A stretch of DNA of 64,000 nt, from positions 12,252 to 76,251 of IMG/VR virus record IMGVR_UViG_3300011989_000011. One strand, 5' to 3'. The translations under genes and the position numbers were made by a program. The notes under the pieces were generated by a model. That model had not been told where the DNA came from. It was given only the letters and a program-made list of their open reading frames with translations, and made no database searches. Below are positions 4,873 to 64,000 of this stretch, piece by piece. Source of the stretch: a virus (Duplodnaviria; Caudoviricetes). Every line of letters begins with the position of its first letter. The first letter of the stretch is position 1.

Positions 4873-5345
4873 CAGACGAGCAGAGACGTTTCATTGAAGA
4901 AAACTATCCATATATGTCGGGTCGGGAAGTAGGCGAAAAGGTTGGCATGGATCGTAATTGGATTAACACCTATGCGAGAAAGCACGGCCTTAAGCATACT
5001 CCCGATACCATAAAGCGCATTAAGGAGGGAAGATTACACAATCTCACTCATAGCAGGACGAAAGAGACCTACAAGAAGATTAGTGGTGCTTTCAAGAAGA
5101 CATATAAGATGGAAGTGTTTAGAGTGTTGTCCGGCTACAAGCAGAAGACCAAACTAAAGGTATGCGTTCTGCCTAAGAAGACAAGGCGGAGGATAACGAT
5201 GCTTTGCCACTCCTACAACTACTTCAAGTCAGACGATTTGAATAGCTCGACCGTTTATTACGATAGCGAGACGAAACGGAACGCCAAAGCAGAAGAATAT
5301 GCTAAAGAGAAGTATGGTATAAAATTCGAGGAAGCAAATGGATAG
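4869..5345 (+). CDS. Putative helix-turn-helix DNA-binding protein
   Basis: FIEENYPYMSGREVGEKVGMDRNWINTYARKHGLK resembles an HTH. Confidence 0.5.
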   Translation: MTDEQRRFIEENYPYMSGREVGEKVGMDRNWINTYARKHGLKHTPDTIKRIKEGRLHNLTHSRTKETYKKISGAFKKTYKMEVFRVLSGYKQKTKLKVCVLPKKTRRRITMLCHSYNYFKSDDLNSSTVYYDSETKRNAKAEEYAKEKYGIKFEEANG

Positions 5346-6869: not shown

Positions 6870-7258
6870 TTAGCGAGTTCGACCCAGTTATTTGGCCGAG
6901 GAAACTATTTGTTGTGGTTGGAGGGGATATAGATTTCCTCCAATCCAACTTTTGTAAGAAGGATGGTACGGCTTATGCTATGGAGCAAGAAGACAAAGAT
7001 ACGAGCAATGCCGTTACCTTCCTTGAAGTGATGCGTTGTGATACGGGTGATTTCGGAGAATTGATATGGCTCCACACCATTGAGAAAGCCACGTTACCCA
7101 TCATAGCACATGAGTGTATGCACGCTTGTAATGCTATCCTTGCTGCATCGGATGTCAAGTTGGATTCTGACAACGATGAGACACAAGCCTACACCTATCA
7201 GTGGGTTTTCGAGCAGACCATTGTAGCTTTTGAGAAGTCAAAAGTTAGCCAAAGTTAA
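6857..7258 (+). CDS. Small HExxH (zincin-like) protein
   Basis: IIAHECMHA followed by DETQAY. Confidence 0.5.
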   Translation: MDGVISEFDPVIWPRKLFVVVGGDIDFLQSNFCKKDGTAYAMEQEDKDTSNAVTFLEVMRCDTGDFGELIWLHTIEKATLPIIAHECMHACNAILAASDVKLDSDNDETQAYTYQWVFEQTIVAFEKSKVSQS

Positions 7259-7362
7259 ACTTTTGATTATCAGCAAATTAAATGCGATTTTGTTTGTTTA
7301 TCTCAGAAAAAATGACTACCTTTACACTGTAATTAAGAAACATATAAACATTAAGAGCAATG
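7255..7362 (+). promoter_or_regulatory. Repeated promoter cassette, copy 1
   Basis: Palindrome 7255-7281; TTTG 7293, 20 nt, TACCTTTA 7317; 36-bp core 7307-7342; TAAGAGCAATG. Confidence 0.85.
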
Positions 7363-9459: not shown

Positions 9460-9564
9460 TTAATTGGAAATCAAGAAATTAACGAGGTAAATATTTGGTC
9501 AATCCGTAAAAAATGACTACCTTTACAATGTAATTAAGAAACATATTAAACTTTAAGAGCAATG
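9456..9564 (+). promoter_or_regulatory. Repeated promoter cassette, copy 2
   Basis: Palindrome 9456-9482; TTTG 9494; core 9508-9543; TAAGAGCAATG 9554. Confidence 0.85.
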
Positions 9565-11909: not shown

Positions 11910-12146
11910 ATGAAGAAAGAAATGATTGAGTACGCAAAGCAATGGATAGAGCAAGGCAAGCCATGTTGCTACAGATATGGTTGGGGTTGGAAAGGTGCAA
12001 GCGCACGCCAACTCAGCAAGGAAGAAGCATTGAAGAAGTTACCTTCATATAGCTTCGGAAAAGGTTTCTATAGCTTATCATTCATCAAGGTTAACGGAGT
12101 AGAGACCTTGGAGTTTAACGAGTTGTCGGAAAACGATATGTGGTAA
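11910..12146 (+). CDS. Hypothetical protein
   Basis: 78-aa ORF, last gene of the early block. Confidence 0.55.
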   Translation: MKKEMIEYAKQWIEQGKPCCYRYGWGWKGASARQLSKEEALKKLPSYSFGKGFYSLSFIKVNGVETLEFNELSENDMW

Positions 12147-12267
12147 CAGATTAAGAAATGGAATCGTAGAAGAATTACCGCCGTGAGGCGTTCATTGCTC
12201 AGAGGAGCAGTTTCTTAATTAGTTTGTGGGAAAAACATTCTGAGACGAAAAATATTTGTTAAAAGTG

Positions 12268-12324: not shown

Positions 12325-13776
12325 ATGAAAAAGTTAAGTGAGATATTAGACCGTACCCGTCCTGTCGGAGAGATTATCTCTGATTTGGAGCAGAAGTCTA
12401 CTAAGCCGTTTTCATGGAAGAAGTTCAAGAAGGATTATTATGCTGAGAACCACCGCATAGCAGGTGACGAGTGGGGCAAGATAGACCACATCCATGAAGA
12501 CGGTACGATAGACTTTGCAGCACGTCTTCCCTTACCTATTGAGCAGTTGCTTATCAATCACCTCAATGACTTCATGCACGCTAATCCCGTCAAGAGGGAA
12601 TACTATGGCGTGGATGGCAATGAGACAAGGCAGCAGATAGTAACTGCAATCGAGAGAATATACGAGGGTGCTGACATTGATATTGTCAACATGGAGCGTG
12701 GTTTGGCTTACTTCGCTTCGGGTGAAGTGCTTACCATTTGGTATGCAGTGAAGAAAGAGAATGACGATTATGGATTCCATTCTCAGTACAAGCTAAAGTG
12801 CAAGGTCTATTCTCCTATGGAGGATGATTGCGAGTTATACCCATTGATGGACGAGAACGGTGATCTGATAGCTTTGTCTTTCAAGTATAAGAAGCGTGTC
12901 AAGGATGCGGATGTCTACTACTTTGAGTGCTATACTGCCGACAAGCATTACAAGTGGCACCAAGGCGATGTATCTCAGTGGACCGATGATATTTTCTACA
13001 CCGATGGAGAGGGTAACACTACCTATGGCGATGATATCATCTTAGGTAAGATCCCCGGCATCTACGCTTACAAGAAAGACCCGTCTGTCGCTTATGGTAC
13101 GAGCGAGCTCAGAAACGATATTGAGTATAAGACAGCCGGAGAAGCTGATACGGTAGCCTACAACTTTGCTCCTATCCTCGAAGTCAAGGGTGGCATCAAA
13201 GGCGATGAGAAGAAAGGCGAGACACGAAGGGTCATGAAGGTATCTGAGAACGGAGGTATCAACTACGTGTCTTGGAATGGCTCTACCGATGCAGTCAAGA
13301 ACCACTACGCTATCACGAAGGAGTTGATATTCATGATTAACCAAATGCCGGATATCTCCTTTGATAACATGAAGTCGTTGGGCAACATAGGTTACGATGC
13401 GAGGGTTATGATGTTCACCGATACCATCCTCAGAGTTAAGCGTGAGAGCAAGCCGTTGCTTCAAGCCTACAGACGAGAGGGAAACGTTATCAAGGCTTTC
13501 CTCAAACTGATGAACGTTGATTGGGCCTCGGAGATTGACAAGATTTGGATTAAGCACTCAATAGACATCTACATCCCGAAGGATGAGAGCGCAGAGATTG
13601 ACAAGCGTATGAAAGCCAACGGAGGTAAGCCTATCGAAAGTCAGCTTGAATCCATCCAACGTTATGGTCGAAGCAAAGACCCACAAGCCACCCTCGATGC
13701 TATCAGAAAAGAACAAGAGGATTCGCTTGGAAACACGATTAACTCATTACTCAGCAAGAGTCAAGAAAAAGAATAG
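12325..13776 (+). CDS. Portal protein (SPP1-like)
   Basis: 483 aa, upstream of MuF; resembles Bacteroidales SPP1-type portals (KCKVYSPM, YNFAPILEVKG). Confidence 0.75.
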   Translation: MKKLSEILDRTRPVGEIISDLEQKSTKPFSWKKFKKDYYAENHRIAGDEWGKIDHIHEDGTIDFAARLPLPIEQLLINHLNDFMHANPVKREYYGVDGNETRQQIVTAIERIYEGADIDIVNMERGLAYFASGEVLTIWYAVKKENDDYGFHSQYKLKCKVYSPMEDDCELYPLMDENGDLIALSFKYKKRVKDADVYYFECYTADKHYKWHQGDVSQWTDDIFYTDGEGNTTYGDDIILGKIPGIYAYKKDPSVAYGTSELRNDIEYKTAGEADTVAYNFAPILEVKGGIKGDEKKGETRRVMKVSENGGINYVSWNGSTDAVKNHYAITKELIFMINQMPDISFDNMKSLGNIGYDARVMMFTDTILRVKRESKPLLQAYRREGNVIKAFLKLMNVDWASEIDKIWIKHSIDIYIPKDESAEIDKRMKANGGKPIESQLESIQRYGRSKDPQATLDAIRKEQEDSLGNTINSLLSKSQEKE

Positions 13777-17985: not shown

Positions 17986-18093
17986 TTAAATAATTGGTTA
18001 TCAGCAAATTAACGCTCGTAAAATTTGCATATCTCAGAAAAAATGACTACCTTTACATTGTAATTAAGAAACATATAAAATACGAGAACAATG
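17986..18093 (+). promoter_or_regulatory. Repeated promoter cassette, copy 3
   Basis: Palindrome 17986-18012; TTTG 18024; core 18038-18073. Confidence 0.85.
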
Positions 18094-29270: not shown

Positions 29271-30785
29271 ATGTCGAGCGTAGCAGTAAAGAACAAAATG
29301 CGTGAATGGCGTAATGATTGGAATCTGTTTATCAAGGAGGTCCTAAAGGCTGACCTTGACAAGGAGCAGAAAGCTATTGTTGATGCCGTTCAGCATAATA
29401 AGATGGTAGCAGTAGCTTCGGGAACCGCACGGGGAAAAGACTTCGTAGCGGCTTGCTGTGCTATGTGCTTTCTCTATCTCACTCCTACATTCGACAAGGA
29501 AGGTAATTTGGTAGGCAATACCAAGGTTGCCATGACAGCCCCAACAGATCGACAGGTGGGTAACATCATGGTGCCGGAGATTCGAAGACTTTTCAAGCAC
29601 GCAAAGGTACTGCCCGGCCGTTTCGTTGCTCATGACATAAGAACTGATTACGAAGAATGGTTCTTGACGGGTTTCAAGGCAGGTGATGATAACACTGAGG
29701 CATGGTCGGGTTTCCATGCAGTGAACACCATGTTCGTAGTAACGGAGGCATCGGGTATCAGTGAGACGGTGTACAATGCTATCGAAGGTAACTTGCAAGG
29801 TAACTCACGAATATTGTTAGTATTCAACCCTAACATCAATATGGGTTACGCTGCAAGGGCAATGACACAAGCACGTTTCAAGCATTTCAGACTTAACTCC
29901 CTCGATGCGGAGAATGTCGTGGAGAAGCGTATCGTGCACCCCGGCCAAGTAGACTATGACTGGGTGAAAGATAAGGTTGAGAACTGGTGTGAGCCTATCC
30001 AACAATCAGACTTCGATGAAGGGTTGGGAGATTTTACTTGGGAGGGTAAGACCTATCGCCCTAATGATCTGTTTCGTGTCAAGGTGTTGGGATTGTTCCC
30101 GAAGGTCAGCGAAGACGTACTCATCCCCTACGAATGGATCGAGCGTGCCAACCTACGATGGAAGCAAAAGGTCGAAAGCGGTTACAAGCCAAGGACACAA
30201 GCACTCGTTGGTATGGATGTGGCAGGTATGGGTAGAGATTCATCAGTTCTCTGTCCACGCTATCGTAACTTTGTTTCCAAGTTCGATGTTCATCAGTCGG
30301 GAGGTAAGGCAGACCACATGCACGTAGCCGGAATGGGTGCCAACTATCTCCGTGCTCACAAGAAGACGTTGTTGTTCATTGATACCATAGGCGAGGGTGC
30401 AGGTGTCTACTCACGATTGGAAGAGTTAGGATTCGATGAAAGAATATACTCAGCCAAGAATAGTGAGAGTGCTAAGGGTCTTCACGATGTCACGGGAGAA
30501 TACACCTTTGCTAACATGAGGGCTTATCTGATGTGGTGTGTTAGGGATTGGCTCAACCCTAAGAACGGCTTCAACGCTTGCCTCCCACCATGCGATCAGT
30601 TTGCAGAGGAAGCCACATCTACCAAGTGGAAGTTCCTCAGTAGTGGTAGTATCATCATAGAGCCAAAGGAAGATATTAAGGCAAAGATAGGTCGCTCGCC
30701 GGACTATATGGATGCGTTGGCTTACACGTTCTATCCTAACTACAATAATTTGGATGCGAAAGCCATTTTGAATAAAGTGTTATAG
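29271..30785 (+). CDS. terL: Terminase large subunit
   Basis: Walker A-like VASGTARGKD; Walker B-like FVVTEASG; nuclease GMDVAGMGRD..RSPDYMDAL. Confidence 0.93.
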   Translation: MSSVAVKNKMREWRNDWNLFIKEVLKADLDKEQKAIVDAVQHNKMVAVASGTARGKDFVAACCAMCFLYLTPTFDKEGNLVGNTKVAMTAPTDRQVGNIMVPEIRRLFKHAKVLPGRFVAHDIRTDYEEWFLTGFKAGDDNTEAWSGFHAVNTMFVVTEASGISETVYNAIEGNLQGNSRILLVFNPNINMGYAARAMTQARFKHFRLNSLDAENVVEKRIVHPGQVDYDWVKDKVENWCEPIQQSDFDEGLGDFTWEGKTYRPNDLFRVKVLGLFPKVSEDVLIPYEWIERANLRWKQKVESGYKPRTQALVGMDVAGMGRDSSVLCPRYRNFVSKFDVHQSGGKADHMHVAGMGANYLRAHKKTLLFIDTIGEGAGVYSRLEELGFDERIYSAKNSESAKGLHDVTGEYTFANMRAYLMWCVRDWLNPKNGFNACLPPCDQFAEEATSTKWKFLSSGSIIIEPKEDIKAKIGRSPDYMDALAYTFYPNYNNLDAKAILNKVL

Positions 30786-30815
30786 TTAATTAGGTTAAGA
30801 AAGTTAGTAAAACGT

Positions 30816-30845
30816 TTGTAATTTGAAAGATTTTGATTATCTTTG
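30816..30845 (+). promoter_or_regulatory. Canonical Bacteroidales promoter with no protein-sized ORF downstream
   Basis: TTTG 30816 and TATCTTTG 30838-30845. Confidence 0.7.
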
Positions 30846-30849
30846 CAAC

Positions 30850-30986
30850 GTTTCTTAATTACAAGGCCGATGGCACTCATTGCTCGCCAAGGCTGAGTAA
30901 TTCTCTTTGTGCGTTCGCCCGTGACGGGTAGACGCACATTTTGTTTATGGGTAAAATAAAAGCCCAACCGATTGGTTGAGCCTTTT
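30850..30986 (+). ncRNA. Candidate antisense sRNA (~135 nt)
   Basis: Own promoter; 5' GTTTCTTAATTACA and internal CATTGCTC complement early-gene leaders; hairpin 30908-30938; terminator-like stem 30957-30986. Confidence 0.55.
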
Positions 30987-30987
30987 C

Positions 30988-31464
30988 TTATTGTAGTGCT
31001 TCTGATTTCCTTTGTTCGTAGAGAACCTTTGCAGAATACTTGCCTACGTTCTCGAAGCTATCGTAATACTCCCCATTCTTCTTGAATAGTATGTTGAAGA
31101 AATGCTCCTTATTGTTTGGGAAGGTAAACTCCACTACGGTAGCATTGCAGTTGGCATCATCGGTGCCGAACCCCTCCACCAACACATCAAAGGCATTGAC
31201 GGAGTTGATCGCATCAGTTATCTTTCTCAGTGAAGTGCTTGCCCACGCTATGACATTCTGACTATTGGTGTCAAGCATCGGGTTATACGCTTTGATGTTC
31301 TTTGTCTTCACGATGGTGATGGTCGGGACCTTGCTTCCTCTGTCTATCTGCTGCTGAAAATACACATGGTTAAGATACTCCACAACCTTTGCGTTATCAT
31401 TGCCACACGAGGCGAATAACAACACCACAAGCGAATAAAAAGCGAAAGCCAATAACTTCTTCAT
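30988..31464 (-). CDS. Lipoprotein moron on the opposite strand
   Basis: MKKLLAFAFYSLVVLLFASC lipobox. Confidence 0.75.
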   Translation of the reverse strand: MKKLLAFAFYSLVVLLFASCGNDNAKVVEYLNHVYFQQQIDRGSKVPTITIVKTKNIKAYNPMLDTNSQNVIAWASTSLRKITDAINSVNAFDVLVEGFGTDDANCNATVVEFTFPNNKEHFFNILFKKNGEYYDSFENVGKYSAKVLYEQRKSEALQ

Positions 31465-31550
31465 AGGAATAATTTTAGCGCAAATATAAGCAATTCTACG
31501 GCTCCTAAAGATTTCTATTCGTTAAACAATATTAAAAGTGAAATTAGGTG

Positions 31551-31581
31551 TTTGTTACTCAAACATTTTTAAGTAAATTTG
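31551..31581 (+). promoter_or_regulatory. Promoter of the late head/tail operon
   Basis: TTTG 31551, 19 nt, TAAATTTG 31574. Confidence 0.75.
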
Positions 31582-31589
31582 CGCAAGAA

Positions 31590-31741
31590 AGCGTGTGAAG
31601 ATGCACGCAACAGAACTAATCGTAAACTTCATTGCTCTTAACATGAGAAGTGGTTCTACTCGATGATGGTCTGCTTGCGTCATGTACGCTCGCAGACCAT
31701 TTTATTTATTGTTTTATTAATCTAAAGCTAAGAGTAATGAA
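31590..31741 (+). promoter_or_regulatory. Structured 5' leader able to sequester the scaffold start codon
   Basis: TTCATTGCTCTTA 31628-31640 pairs with TAAGAGTAATGAA 31729-31741; hairpins 31591-31608 and 31666-31700. Confidence 0.6.
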
Positions 31742-62567: not shown

Positions 62568-63792
62568 CTATATAGTCGATAACCTTTCTGTTGGCTTCAT
62601 CCACCTTCTTCATGTCGAATTTGATATAGGTGTCAGTAACTGAATACCCTCCATGCCCTAATGCAGCAGCGATTGTCTCTTTTGGGATATCCAACTCAGC
62701 AGCCGTTGTTGCCCATGAATGTCTTGCCCAATATAGAGATATGTTAGGAAACAAGCCGATACGTTTGGTTATCAGTTTATGCTTCTTGCTATTTGGTTTC
62801 CACTTCGGGTTAGGAATCATCTGAACGGGCCCGATACGTTTCAGTTGTCGGTCAATCTTCATCGTTAGGCTCTTGTAAGACGAAAATCCCTCCCCAAAGG
62901 ATAGGAGTAAGTCTTTTCCTCTGTACTTATCTATGAGTTCCAATGCTTCGGGTTCAACCTTGATATCATACAAGCGGCCAGTCTTGGCACGGTTGTACAT
63001 GATCCGTCCGTTTTGAATCTCAGTTAGAGCGCATAGGTCAACGAGGTTGATACCTATCAGATAGAAGGTAAGTTTGAAGATATCCACATACCTTTGCTGC
63101 CATTTCTCGCAAGGATAGGAGAAAAGGGTTCTAATGTCTTCGACTGACATAGAACGCTTCGGTGTCGCTTCGGGTCTGATTTTGAACTGCCGGAAAGGGT
63201 AGAACTGAGTGATATTGTTGTCGATGGCATCATTAAAGACAGCACGAATATTTCTGAAATGAATGTTGCGCCCGTTTACGGAATGGTTGTACTTGGTAAG
63301 GAACAACTCGAAATCAGTCAGCCAATCCTTTGTAATGTCTTCGAACTTCAATAGATTTGCGTTTGGCGCAAACTCCTTTATCCGTTTCAGCGTTATAGCA
63401 TACTTCTCGACAGTGCTTGACGCTTTGAGTCTTTTCATATACTCATCATACCTATAAAGAAAGAGAGATTTATCTATATGAACGGGAGAAAGCATATCAG
63501 ATATACGATTCTTTATCTGAGTAGCGTTCATTAGTGCGAGATCGCCTTTTTCGGTAAGCTCCATAAGGATGTTGTCAAACTGACTTTTGCGAGTTTGGAT
63601 AAAGTTGTTAAGTTTGGCTTTGTTAGGATTGTCCTTCACACGCTCCTTCACAGAATCCCATTGCGAGGGTTGCAGTTTCAGTCCAATAGGATATTGCGCT
63701 GACTTGCCATGCTTCGTGATGGTTATCTTCAACGGACACTCACCTTTGGCGTTCTTTGAGCGAGTATCTAAGTAAAGTTTCGTAGTTGTCAT
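62554..63792 (-). CDS. int: Tyrosine integrase with arm-binding and SAM-like domains
   Basis: YNRAKTG, YWARHSWAT, ALGH, TDTYI; N-terminal KLYLDTR. Confidence 0.95.
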   Translation of the reverse strand: MTTTKLYLDTRSKNAKGECPLKITITKHGKSAQYPIGLKLQPSQWDSVKERVKDNPNKAKLNNFIQTRKSQFDNILMELTEKGDLALMNATQIKNRISDMLSPVHIDKSLFLYRYDEYMKRLKASSTVEKYAITLKRIKEFAPNANLLKFEDITKDWLTDFELFLTKYNHSVNGRNIHFRNIRAVFNDAIDNNITQFYPFRQFKIRPEATPKRSMSVEDIRTLFSYPCEKWQQRYVDIFKLTFYLIGINLVDLCALTEIQNGRIMYNRAKTGRLYDIKVEPEALELIDKYRGKDLLLSFGEGFSSYKSLTMKIDRQLKRIGPVQMIPNPKWKPNSKKHKLITKRIGLFPNISLYWARHSWATTAAELDIPKETIAAALGHGGYSVTDTYIKFDMKKVDEANRKVIDYIENRH

Positions 63793-63803
63793 TGCTCCAA
63801 GAT

Positions 63804-63878
63804 TTGCAAGTTATTTGCAAGTTTTTCTGAGCAAACTTGCAAGTAATTGCTAAGTTTTGCCCAAGAAAATTGCAGAAG
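63804..63878. repeat. Phased TTGC(AAGT) repeats; candidate att arm-type sites
   Basis: TTGCAAGT at 63804, 63815, 63837; TTGC variants at 63847, 63857, 63870. Confidence 0.55.
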
Positions 63879-63925
63879 TTGTTTCTTAATTACGTTCCAA
63901 ATGCCTTGATTTCAAGGTCTTTTAG

Positions 63926-64000
63926 CGGAAAGACGGGGATTCGAACCCCGGATACCCTTTGGAGGTATACACGCTTTCCAGGCGTGCCTCTTAAGCCACT
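63926..64000 (-). tRNA. tRNA-Ser(GGA), 5' end beyond the window; likely integration site
   Basis: Reverse complement gives CACGC-CTGGAAA-GCGTG, a long variable arm, CGGGG-TTCGAAT-CCCCG and TCTTTCC-G. Confidence 0.92.

Follow-up and report, generated by a model that had tools for sequence, protein, structure and literature searches.

A probable small RNA gene complementary to gene starts and leaders of its own phage

The C4 RNA of phages P1 and P7 and the CI RNA of phage P4 pair with repeated sites in their own transcripts and thereby silence lytic or antirepressor functions. Both are excised from the transcript that bears their targets and adopt cloverleaf-like folds, and CI acts through premature termination. 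Here we describe a locus in a 64,000-nucleotide stretch of DNA (hereafter, the window) from the IMG/VR virus record IMGVR_UViG_3300011989_000011 (Duplodnaviria; Caudoviricetes; positions 12,252 to 76,251 of that record) that is very likely a real phage gene, conserved among relatives, whose product is a small non-coding RNA (sRNA), denoted sRNA-A; the phage is a prophage of gut Bacteroidales. A second such element, sRNA-B, lies downstream. A sequence-only reading of the window had proposed that sRNA-A is a multi-target RNA analogous to C4 and CI. The functional analogy holds, in that a single RNA is predicted to act on several sites of its own phage's transcripts. Membership in their family does not, since no Rfam match was obtained and sRNA-A is not processed from a transcript that also carries its targets. 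Rather, a promoter and a terminator of its own delimit sRNA-A, its fold has two hairpins, and its predicted targets are scattered across at least 30 kb.

The FopS and GibS sRNAs of Bacteroides thetaiotaomicron (PMC11697453, PMC7366714) share with sRNA-A the host clade, a sigma-ABfr −33/−7 promoter, short length, a single-stranded seed, an intrinsic terminator, and predicted start-codon pairing on several mRNAs. FopS-10 of Bacteroides binds beside the start codon and blocks translation initiation (PMC11697453), and the FopS/GibS seed blocks initiation in a clade that lacks Shine-Dalgarno sites. These RNAs are chromosomal, target polysaccharide-utilization mRNAs, and are unrelated in sequence, whereas sRNA-A is phage-borne, would be directed at a phage-specific motif on 4–14 genes, and carries a second, 5′ seed in some lineages. 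The Rfam covariance models for FopS/GibS had no match in the window, and the seed sequence differs.

Other phage and bacterial regulators resemble parts of the system. The lambda 6S RNA (the PR′-tR′ leader) is like sRNA-B especially in combining a constitutive-looking promoter, a short structured RNA, and a strong terminator before structural genes. The same layout is found at sRNA-B but not at sRNA-A, which has no downstream operon in the window, and no antiterminator protein or qut-like site was identified. SreA of Listeria, a terminated leader that acts in trans, offers a precedent for a dual role. T4 RegA is likewise one phage factor whose recognition of translation initiation regions silences many phage messages at once; however, RegA is a protein, whereas recognition by sRNA-A would be RNA–RNA pairing through an exact complement of 9–22 nt. 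By analogy, sRNA-A resembles both the phage immunity antisense RNAs and FopS/GibS in function and lies outside both families. A literature search found no report of small or regulatory RNAs from phages of Bacteroides, Prevotella, or other Bacteroidota.

The sRNA-A gene and its homologs

The sRNA-A gene spans approximately 30850–30946 on the + strand (about 97 nt), and its features and flanks are as follows.

30815–30818, + strand: −33 element TTTG of the sRNA-A promoter, 19 nt 5′ of the −7 box, a spacing that agrees with the sigma-ABfr consensus
30838–30845, + strand: −7 box TATCTTTG (consensus TAnnTTTG), from the sequence and the family alignment
30850–30863, + strand: 5′ seed GTTTCTTAATTACA, the exact complement of a 14-mer in phage leaders, starting 4 nt past the −7 box; nt 1–7 unpaired in the predicted fold
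30857–30902, + strand: hairpin 1, with the start-site seed in its 11-nt apical loop (ViennaRNA minimum free energy and centroid folds); the equivalent hairpin covaries in relatives
30877–30885, + strand: anti-start-site seed UCAUUGCUC, the complement of GAGCAAUGA
30901–30914, + strand: linker and terminator 5′ arm, a 14-nt complement of the leader that precedes the first operon by the left attachment site, attL (G000 524–537)
30908–30946, + strand: intrinsic terminator of sRNA-A, a GC-rich GUGA-loop hairpin (30908–30938) with a covarying stem, then UUUUGUUU
30961–30988 (stem 30961–30982), no strand assigned: second hairpin with T-runs on either side, outside the conserved RNA and absent from L008

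The sequence-only reading had located the −7 box, the 14-mer, an 8-mer (CATTGCTC, 30878–30885), and the hairpins correctly. Its promoter call proved stronger than claimed, as the upstream TTTG completes a full −33/−7 promoter by match to the sigma-ABfr consensus of Bacteroidetes (as quoted in PMC7366714). Taken alone, TATCTTTG occurs nine times in the window against 2.95 expected, which is not significant (1 of 100 shuffles reaches nine).

The 3′ end required revision. Instead of reaching 30986, as had been proposed, the RNA ends at about 30946, at the first hairpin and its U-run (DNA of the terminator tail, TTTTGTTT). The locus L008 is 98.7% identical to the window as far as 30938 and divergent beyond, and the terminator of sRNA-A is therefore the first hairpin. 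The second hairpin, included in the earlier call of a terminator-like stem, is probably the terminator of a convergent minus-strand lipoprotein gene (31464–30988), for which the T-runs on both sides are suited. A simple terminator rule that accompanied a sigma-70-type promoter scan missed the bulged hairpin at 30908–30938, and the sigma-70 scan is itself uninformative in the Bacteroidales clade. The claim that no protein-sized open reading frame (ORF) is present was upheld: relatives do not conserve the short ORFs of either strand, and a small-protein interpretation was rejected on this basis.

Relatives were gathered via the neighboring large terminase gene (terL), which yielded 258 IMG/VR matches, of which 80 loci were kept and 78 analyzed. 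In 70 of these 78 loci, a TAnnTTTG box occurs no more than 70 nt past the stop of terL, with CATTG[CT]TC after the box; terL identity among the 78 relatives is 68–73%, with one at 100%. Positions T1, A2, T5, T6, T7, and G8 of the −7 box are invariant across 19 distinct aligned homologs, as is TCATTG-TC, and the terminator loop GUGA is nearly so. The only variable seed base is a C to T change in L028 (seed CAUUGUUC), which would retain a G-U pair. The same architecture, with different hairpin-1 sequences, was found in seven further records of Prevotella, Bacteroidaceae, and other bacterial genomes. These come from a loose pattern scan of bacterial genome contigs that returned 101 stretches, seven with the −7 box and full architecture; the remainder, from unrelated taxa and without a −7 box, were taken as chance matches.

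Predicted structure is conserved along with sequence. The fold of the window copy has z = −3.25 relative to shuffles (ViennaRNA), with the first 7 nt and the 11-nt loop containing UCAUUGCUC unpaired, and none of the folds predicted for the 19 homologs sequesters the seed in a helix. The seed occupies an apical loop in the window copy and a single-stranded linker in relatives. Compensatory changes occur at seven of the nine pairs of the terminator stem in the family alignment and at 7 of 21 pairs in the subfamily that carries the 5′ seed. When a two-hairpin model was applied to alignment A2 (14 sequences), 94% of cells were paired, compared to 43–52% with slid partners, and none of 500 shuffles matched the observed pairing or covariation score; the terminator helix was 100% paired. 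One homolog (L075:4506–4595) has an inverted inner terminator hairpin, in which TTTCAC replaces GTGAAA within the same stem. Its stem is largely retained, with fewer pairs, a weaker predicted fold, and a flipped loop.

Rfam 15 at the gathering threshold identified only tRNA in the whole window, and a permissive scan (E up to 10) of 30700–31100 gave only two snoRNA-like chance matches. No match to GenBank phage DNA was obtained by blastn with 30500–31600, and the terL protein is at most 31% identical to that of any GenBank phage. A covariance model (R1) built from the main group only was narrow, scoring the window copy at 19 bits (E = 0.5); its scan of 151 genomes of one host family, with 30 candidates scored per genome, recovered the seed genome only and says little about the true distribution.

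Complementarity to gene starts and leaders

The complement of the seed UCAUUGCUC is AAGAGCAAUG, in which AUG is the start codon, and the seed spans this codon and the preceding seven bases of a start-site motif. The 8-mer form of the motif, GAGCAATG, occurs 13 times in the window against 2.75 expected. As the sequence-only reading had reported, eight copies coincide with + strand gene starts and a ninth with the start of the integrase gene; antisense copies are at 12193, 30878, and 31630, and the copy at 7003 has no listed ORF start. The 10-mer form, AAGAGCAATG, has eight exact + strand copies in the window, every one at a gene start, and 13 sense copies in the record. The relatives G001–G005 carry 4–13 sense copies of the 10-mer against ~0.15 expected, with or without an upstream promoter cassette, and overall the motif marks 4–14 genes per phage. 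Within individual relatives, the seed region of sRNA-A extends to 12–22 nt of perfect complementarity at certain gene starts.

The motif is phage-specific rather than a host start-site consensus, because in four host genomes its matches cluster within a single prophage stretch of ~40 kb (20 of 25, 10 of 12, 11 of 26, and 14 of 26 matches), one such cluster holding an sRNA-A homolog, while the remaining 2–3 Mb are near the level of a reversed-pattern control. A reading in which host genes share the motif as a general start-site consensus, and the RNA serves to shut off the host, was rejected, since the motif is almost confined to prophage regions. An adenine-rich initiation context has been reported for Bacteroidetes (PMC7366714); the start-site motif has G at −3 and is therefore not simply this context. 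Pairing with or mimicry of 16S rRNA was likewise rejected, as the 16S genes of two host genomes contain no stretch of at least 6 nt of the start motif or leader core in sense or antisense orientation.

The second complementary segment concerns the leaders. The leader 14-mer TGTAATTAAGAAAC has exact + strand copies at 7328, 9529, 18059, 18282, and 19953, one more than the four that had been counted, and an exact inverted copy at 30850. The earlier claim that this complementarity exceeds chance is well founded: with up to two mismatches, ten sites occur in the window against 0.65 expected, and none of 100 shuffles reaches ten. The 14-mer is found six times forward and once in reverse in the whole 76-kb record, and its reversed control is absent. 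Each + strand copy begins 3 nt past a TAnnTTT[AG] −7 box.

A ten-sequence subfamily of sRNA-A that includes the window copy has an invariant single-stranded GUUUCUUA exactly 4 nt past the −7 box. The bases that follow vary by lineage and match the leaders of the same genome over 10–14 nt. In four lineages the pairs of 5′ seed and leader are UAAUUACA/UGUAAUUA (window), UAUAA/UUAUA, UAUAU/AUAUA, and UAAAU/AUUUA. Judged from these sequences, the 14-mer appears to be an additional, lineage-specific seed, with UCAUUGCUC the seed that defines the family.

Pairing was assessed by exact-complement scanning and by cofolding with selected leaders, of which two kinds are exemplified below.

7328–7362, + strand: example target leader, with the 14-mer at 7328–7341 and AAGAGCAATG at 7353–7362; the same layout occurs at 9529/9555, 18282/18308, and 19953/19980
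63790–63894, − strand: integrase leader, with 13 of 14 positions of the leader motif (63881–63894) and GAGCAATGA at the start codon (63789–63797)

The leader at 18059 has a variant start motif. In its own genome, sRNA-A has ten non-self sites of at least 12 nt of perfect complementarity, compared to 0.68 for shuffled RNAs (maximum of five in 1000), and pairing energies of −10 to −14 kcal/mol, compared to about −5 ± 2 for shuffled targets. The predicted targets lie 11–43 kb away. For the cassette leaders, the predicted gain with sRNA-A is −11.8 to −12.9 kcal/mol via the 5′ seed.

The strongest predicted partner of sRNA-A in this phage is the leader of an excisionase-like operon by attL. Three blocks of this leader are complementary to the RNA: 14 nt to RNA nt 52–65, 10 nt to nt 1–10, and 9 nt to nt 28–36. 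The 14- and 10-nt blocks are 3 nt apart in the mRNA, and their complements flank hairpin 1 in sRNA-A; cofolding predicts a three-way junction of this kind, with a gain of −14.3 kcal/mol, compared to −5.0 ± 2.3 for shuffled leaders. A 16-mer, GCACAAAGAGAAACTA, occurs twice (G000 526–541 and 4942–4957), each time just 5′ of the leader-motif core and start motif, and both copies are complementary to the linker and terminator arm of sRNA-A.

The sequence-only reading had described the targets as early genes. Many leaders are indeed complementary, and motif-bearing genes include those for RadC-like, DUF2958, AAA_24, and helicase proteins. However, leaders of the integrase and excisionase-like genes are among the complementary ones, and the portal gene lies between cassette regions, so that ‘early’ is too simple a description. 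The regulon is predicted to comprise recombination genes in addition to replication and early-type genes.

In the main group of relatives, a particular gene close to the end of the record has a start region with 20–22 nt of perfect complementarity to sRNA-A (G002 358–377, G003 680–701, and G001 39–58, with terL oriented +). The gene encodes a 59-aa protein in G002 and G003 and a 96-aa protein in G001, and it may be a primary target of sRNA-A.

Direct repeats of 58 bp (G000 198–255 [L210] and window 63924–63981) mark the two ends of the provirus that makes up the record. The repeat resembles the 3′ portion of a minus-strand tRNA gene, and ARAGORN detected no intact tRNA there. The leader motif of the integrase begins 30 nt inside the right attachment site (attR). 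Two proteins are encoded by the operon that comes first after attL, one of membrane type (67 aa) and one an HTH_17 excisionase-like protein (65 aa). Next in the left-end control module (G000 567–2615) are a CI-like HTH_3 protein (minus strand), a Cro-like protein, and a LuxR/GerE protein with similarity to sigma-70 region 4. This LuxR/GerE protein is a candidate for activating the cassette promoters, which deviate from consensus (TACCTTTA). Among 25 predicted proteins of the record that were scanned against Pfam, the tyrosine integrase was the sole recombinase. An SPP1-type portal gene (window 12325–13776) is located 17 kb upstream of terS/terL, between promoter cassettes, an unusual order for a head module.

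sRNA-B and a third antisense locus

The same start-site seed occurs in a longer form in sRNA-B, ~640 nt downstream of sRNA-A, and both antisense motifs recur at a third locus. Their features are as follows.

31551–31581, + strand: consensus promoter of sRNA-B, with TTTG at 31551–31554 and TAAATTTG at 31574–31581
31587–31710, + strand: sRNA-B, with three stems, the seed UUCAUUGCUCUUAA (31628–31641) in a large loop, and a strong terminator (31663–31700) plus T-run
12175–12221, + strand: both antisense motifs for a third time, here arranged colinearly and lying past the stop of the gene at 11910–12146

Homologs of sRNA-B were found in G002, G003, L008, and one Prevotella genome, as well as in L220, L221, and L223. 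The consensus fold of four homologs has 24 pairs, five of them with compensatory changes. Five terL relatives without sRNA-A have 7–8 sense and 1–2 antisense copies of GAGCAATG, and in each of the three inspected relatives of this kind the antisense copy is an sRNA-B homolog. Thus, every inspected phage record that bears the motif has at least one anti-motif RNA.

The position of sRNA-B is constant, 25–40 nt upstream of the start of the head operon. In the window it is directly 5′ of a scaffold-like gene with the start AAGAGTAATG at 31730–31739, and its seed is predicted to be able to pair with this downstream start (AAGAGUAAUG). Such masking in cis is possible in this window only, as the gene after sRNA-B lacks the motif in L220, L223, and G002. 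sRNA-B may have two roles, one in trans and one as the terminated leader of a late operon. With the cassette leaders, sRNA-B has a predicted gain of −14.5 to −16.1 kcal/mol via the start-site seed. Because sRNA-A is predicted to use its 5′ seed and sRNA-B its start-site seed, both could share one cassette leader, and together they are predicted to be able to cover the whole ~35-nt leader.

The locus at 12175–12221 comprises a GUGA-loop hairpin, then UUCAUUGCUC, 9 nt, and GUUUCUUAAUUA, and its motif order is colinear for pairing with a cassette leader. No obvious U-run terminator was found there. Its sequence and placement suggest an antisense element derived from a 3′ untranslated region.

Between sRNA-A and sRNA-B, the minus-strand gene at 30988–31464 encodes a predicted 158-aa lipoprotein (the signal peptide ends in a Cys lipobox) and has its own terminator; it had no Pfam or PHROG match. 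The interval varies in size and content among L008, G002, and G003 and, by this comparison of sequences, looks like a hot spot for the insertion of accessory genes (morons).

Proposed mechanism, alternatives, and significance

Every computational test supports sRNA-A as a promoter-driven, terminated, non-coding RNA with exposed segments that are complementary to many leaders of the same phage. Four general features of a trans-acting sRNA are present, namely a promoter by consensus match, an intrinsic terminator that delimits a short transcript without a conserved ORF, a conserved seed that is accessible in predicted folds, and complementarity to several start codons and leaders. On balance, we think it probable that sRNA-A acts in trans as a multi-target repressor of its own phage’s mRNAs; its transcription, pairing in vivo, repressive effect, and timing are what we infer from these features. 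According to this model, sRNA-A would be transcribed from a host-type consensus promoter, would end at its own intrinsic terminator, and would pair in trans with the short leaders of phage mRNAs. The start-site seed UCAUUGCUC would cover the start codon of AAGAGCAAUG and block ribosome entry, and the second, 5′ seed would pair with the leader element UGUAAUUAAGAAAC, which in this phage is at the predicted 5′ end of mRNAs from the cassette promoters. sRNA-B would contribute its longer start-site seed, such that both RNAs would mask one leader. The timing could be lysogenic silencing and immunity or late shut-off. Consensus promoters and the integrase and excisionase-like leader targets fit silencing in the lysogen, and the position of sRNA-B before the head genes fits late shut-off. 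More tentatively, and with appreciably less confidence than in repression itself, it is conceivable that a whole family of temperate Bacteroidales phages labels 4–14 or more of its genes with the 10-nt motif, that each phage has one or two constitutively promoted RNAs with the exact complement, and that the RNAs of a resident prophage silence at the level of translation not only its own lytic and recombination genes but also those of superinfecting related phages, a form of start-codon cross-immunity that is proposed because the motif and seed are conserved across the family. Lineage-specific second seeds would then set a narrower specificity.

Several observations weigh against trans-acting repression by sRNA-A. 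Its two seeds are in the wrong order for colinear pairing with a single cassette leader, and cofolding with the cassettes uses the 5′ seed only. This caveat, raised in the sequence-only reading, stands for the cassettes; it is eased by the predicted ability of sRNA-B to pair at start sites and by the colinear arrangement of the 5′ tail and linker on the leader of the excisionase operon. The start-site seed of the window copy is just 9 nt compared to the 12–22 nt in relatives, and no second leader-complementary seed was found in L011, L067, L086, or the Prevotella members. Two to five exact copies of the 10-mer persist in phages without sRNA-A, and the start-site motif may have a role that is independent of sRNA-A and sRNA-B. 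The covariation counts derive from related sequences and from structures that were partly specified by the analyst. Finally, in L024-type relatives the sRNA-A promoter carries the inverted leader motif in its spacer, before the −7 box.

This last observation bears on the possibility that the inverted 14-mer is a DNA operator through which a phage protein co-regulates the cassette promoters and the sRNA-A promoter, with complementarity between the 5′ ends of the RNA and mRNAs a by-product, although the start-site seed could still act. The L024-type motif (13 nt, the only exact inverted copy, and unique in the 61-kb G002) overlaps the −7 box from the upstream side; being in the promoter spacer, it is therefore outside any RNA made from that promoter and is better explained as a DNA site. 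All seven exact copies of the 14-mer start 3–4 nt past a −7 box and overlap the predicted start, as would be expected of operators, and the co-variation of seed and leader is predicted alike by an RNA seed and by duplicated operators, whose copies would also co-vary. However, the leader element is also present in leaders without a nearby promoter, and the operator interpretation is weakened as a result: intercistronic leaders contain it at a distance from all −7 boxes at window 20720 (where it overlaps a stop codon), G004 41546 and 48778, and G005 17146, and at G000 541 it is likewise remote from such a box, at least 58 nt into a leader of ~100 nt. Furthermore, the leader-complementary segment, where present, stays single-stranded at the RNA 5′ end in predicted folds, another 14-nt block of sRNA-A, away from promoters, matches the same G000 leader, and no candidate binding protein for the 14-mer was identified. 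We therefore regard a purely DNA-level role for the 14-mer as improbable.

An equally improbable account is that sRNA-A and sRNA-B are terminated leaders (attenuators) of late operons that act in cis only, in the manner of lambda PR′-tR′/6S, with the conserved segment serving as part of an antitermination or self-masking switch. The invariable spacing of sRNA-B from the head operon leaves no room for a further promoter, and the start that follows sRNA-B in the window is a possible pairing partner of its seed; yet this masking in cis is not conserved, sRNA-A faces a convergent gene in the window with no same-strand gene after it, and relatives have a complete cassette promoter after sRNA-A. A role confined to cis would also leave unexplained why the RNA exactly complements a motif carried by a dozen genes elsewhere in the genome. 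That inverted duplication of leader pieces left the elements as a relic devoid of function or as a product of chance, or that the inverted repeats are sites of DNA inversion, seems to us very improbable. Inverted leader fragments do occur at three loci in the window (12175–12221, 30850–30885, and 31628–31641), and invertible DNA is abundant in Bacteroidales. Nevertheless, the seed and promoter are invariant and the hairpins covary across phages of ~70% terL identity and across host genera, the repeats are just 8–14 bp long and 11–23 kb from their partners, and the record’s scanned proteins include no recombinase besides the tyrosine integrase.

These phages form a lineage without a close cultured relative, as judged by terL identity to GenBank phages, and the family is common in gut and rumen viromes, with 258 terL relatives in IMG/VR. 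If trans-acting repression by sRNA-A and sRNA-B is correct, then one short RNA family would control the translation of about a dozen phage genes via a phage-specific start-site motif, and such control would operate in a bacterial clade without Shine-Dalgarno sites. The two RNAs would provide a compact pair of seed and motif for engineering gene control in Bacteroides and Prevotella. For the phages themselves, repression of this kind would show how temperate gut phages stabilize lysogeny or time their gene expression, and would suggest an RNA route to immunity between related prophages.

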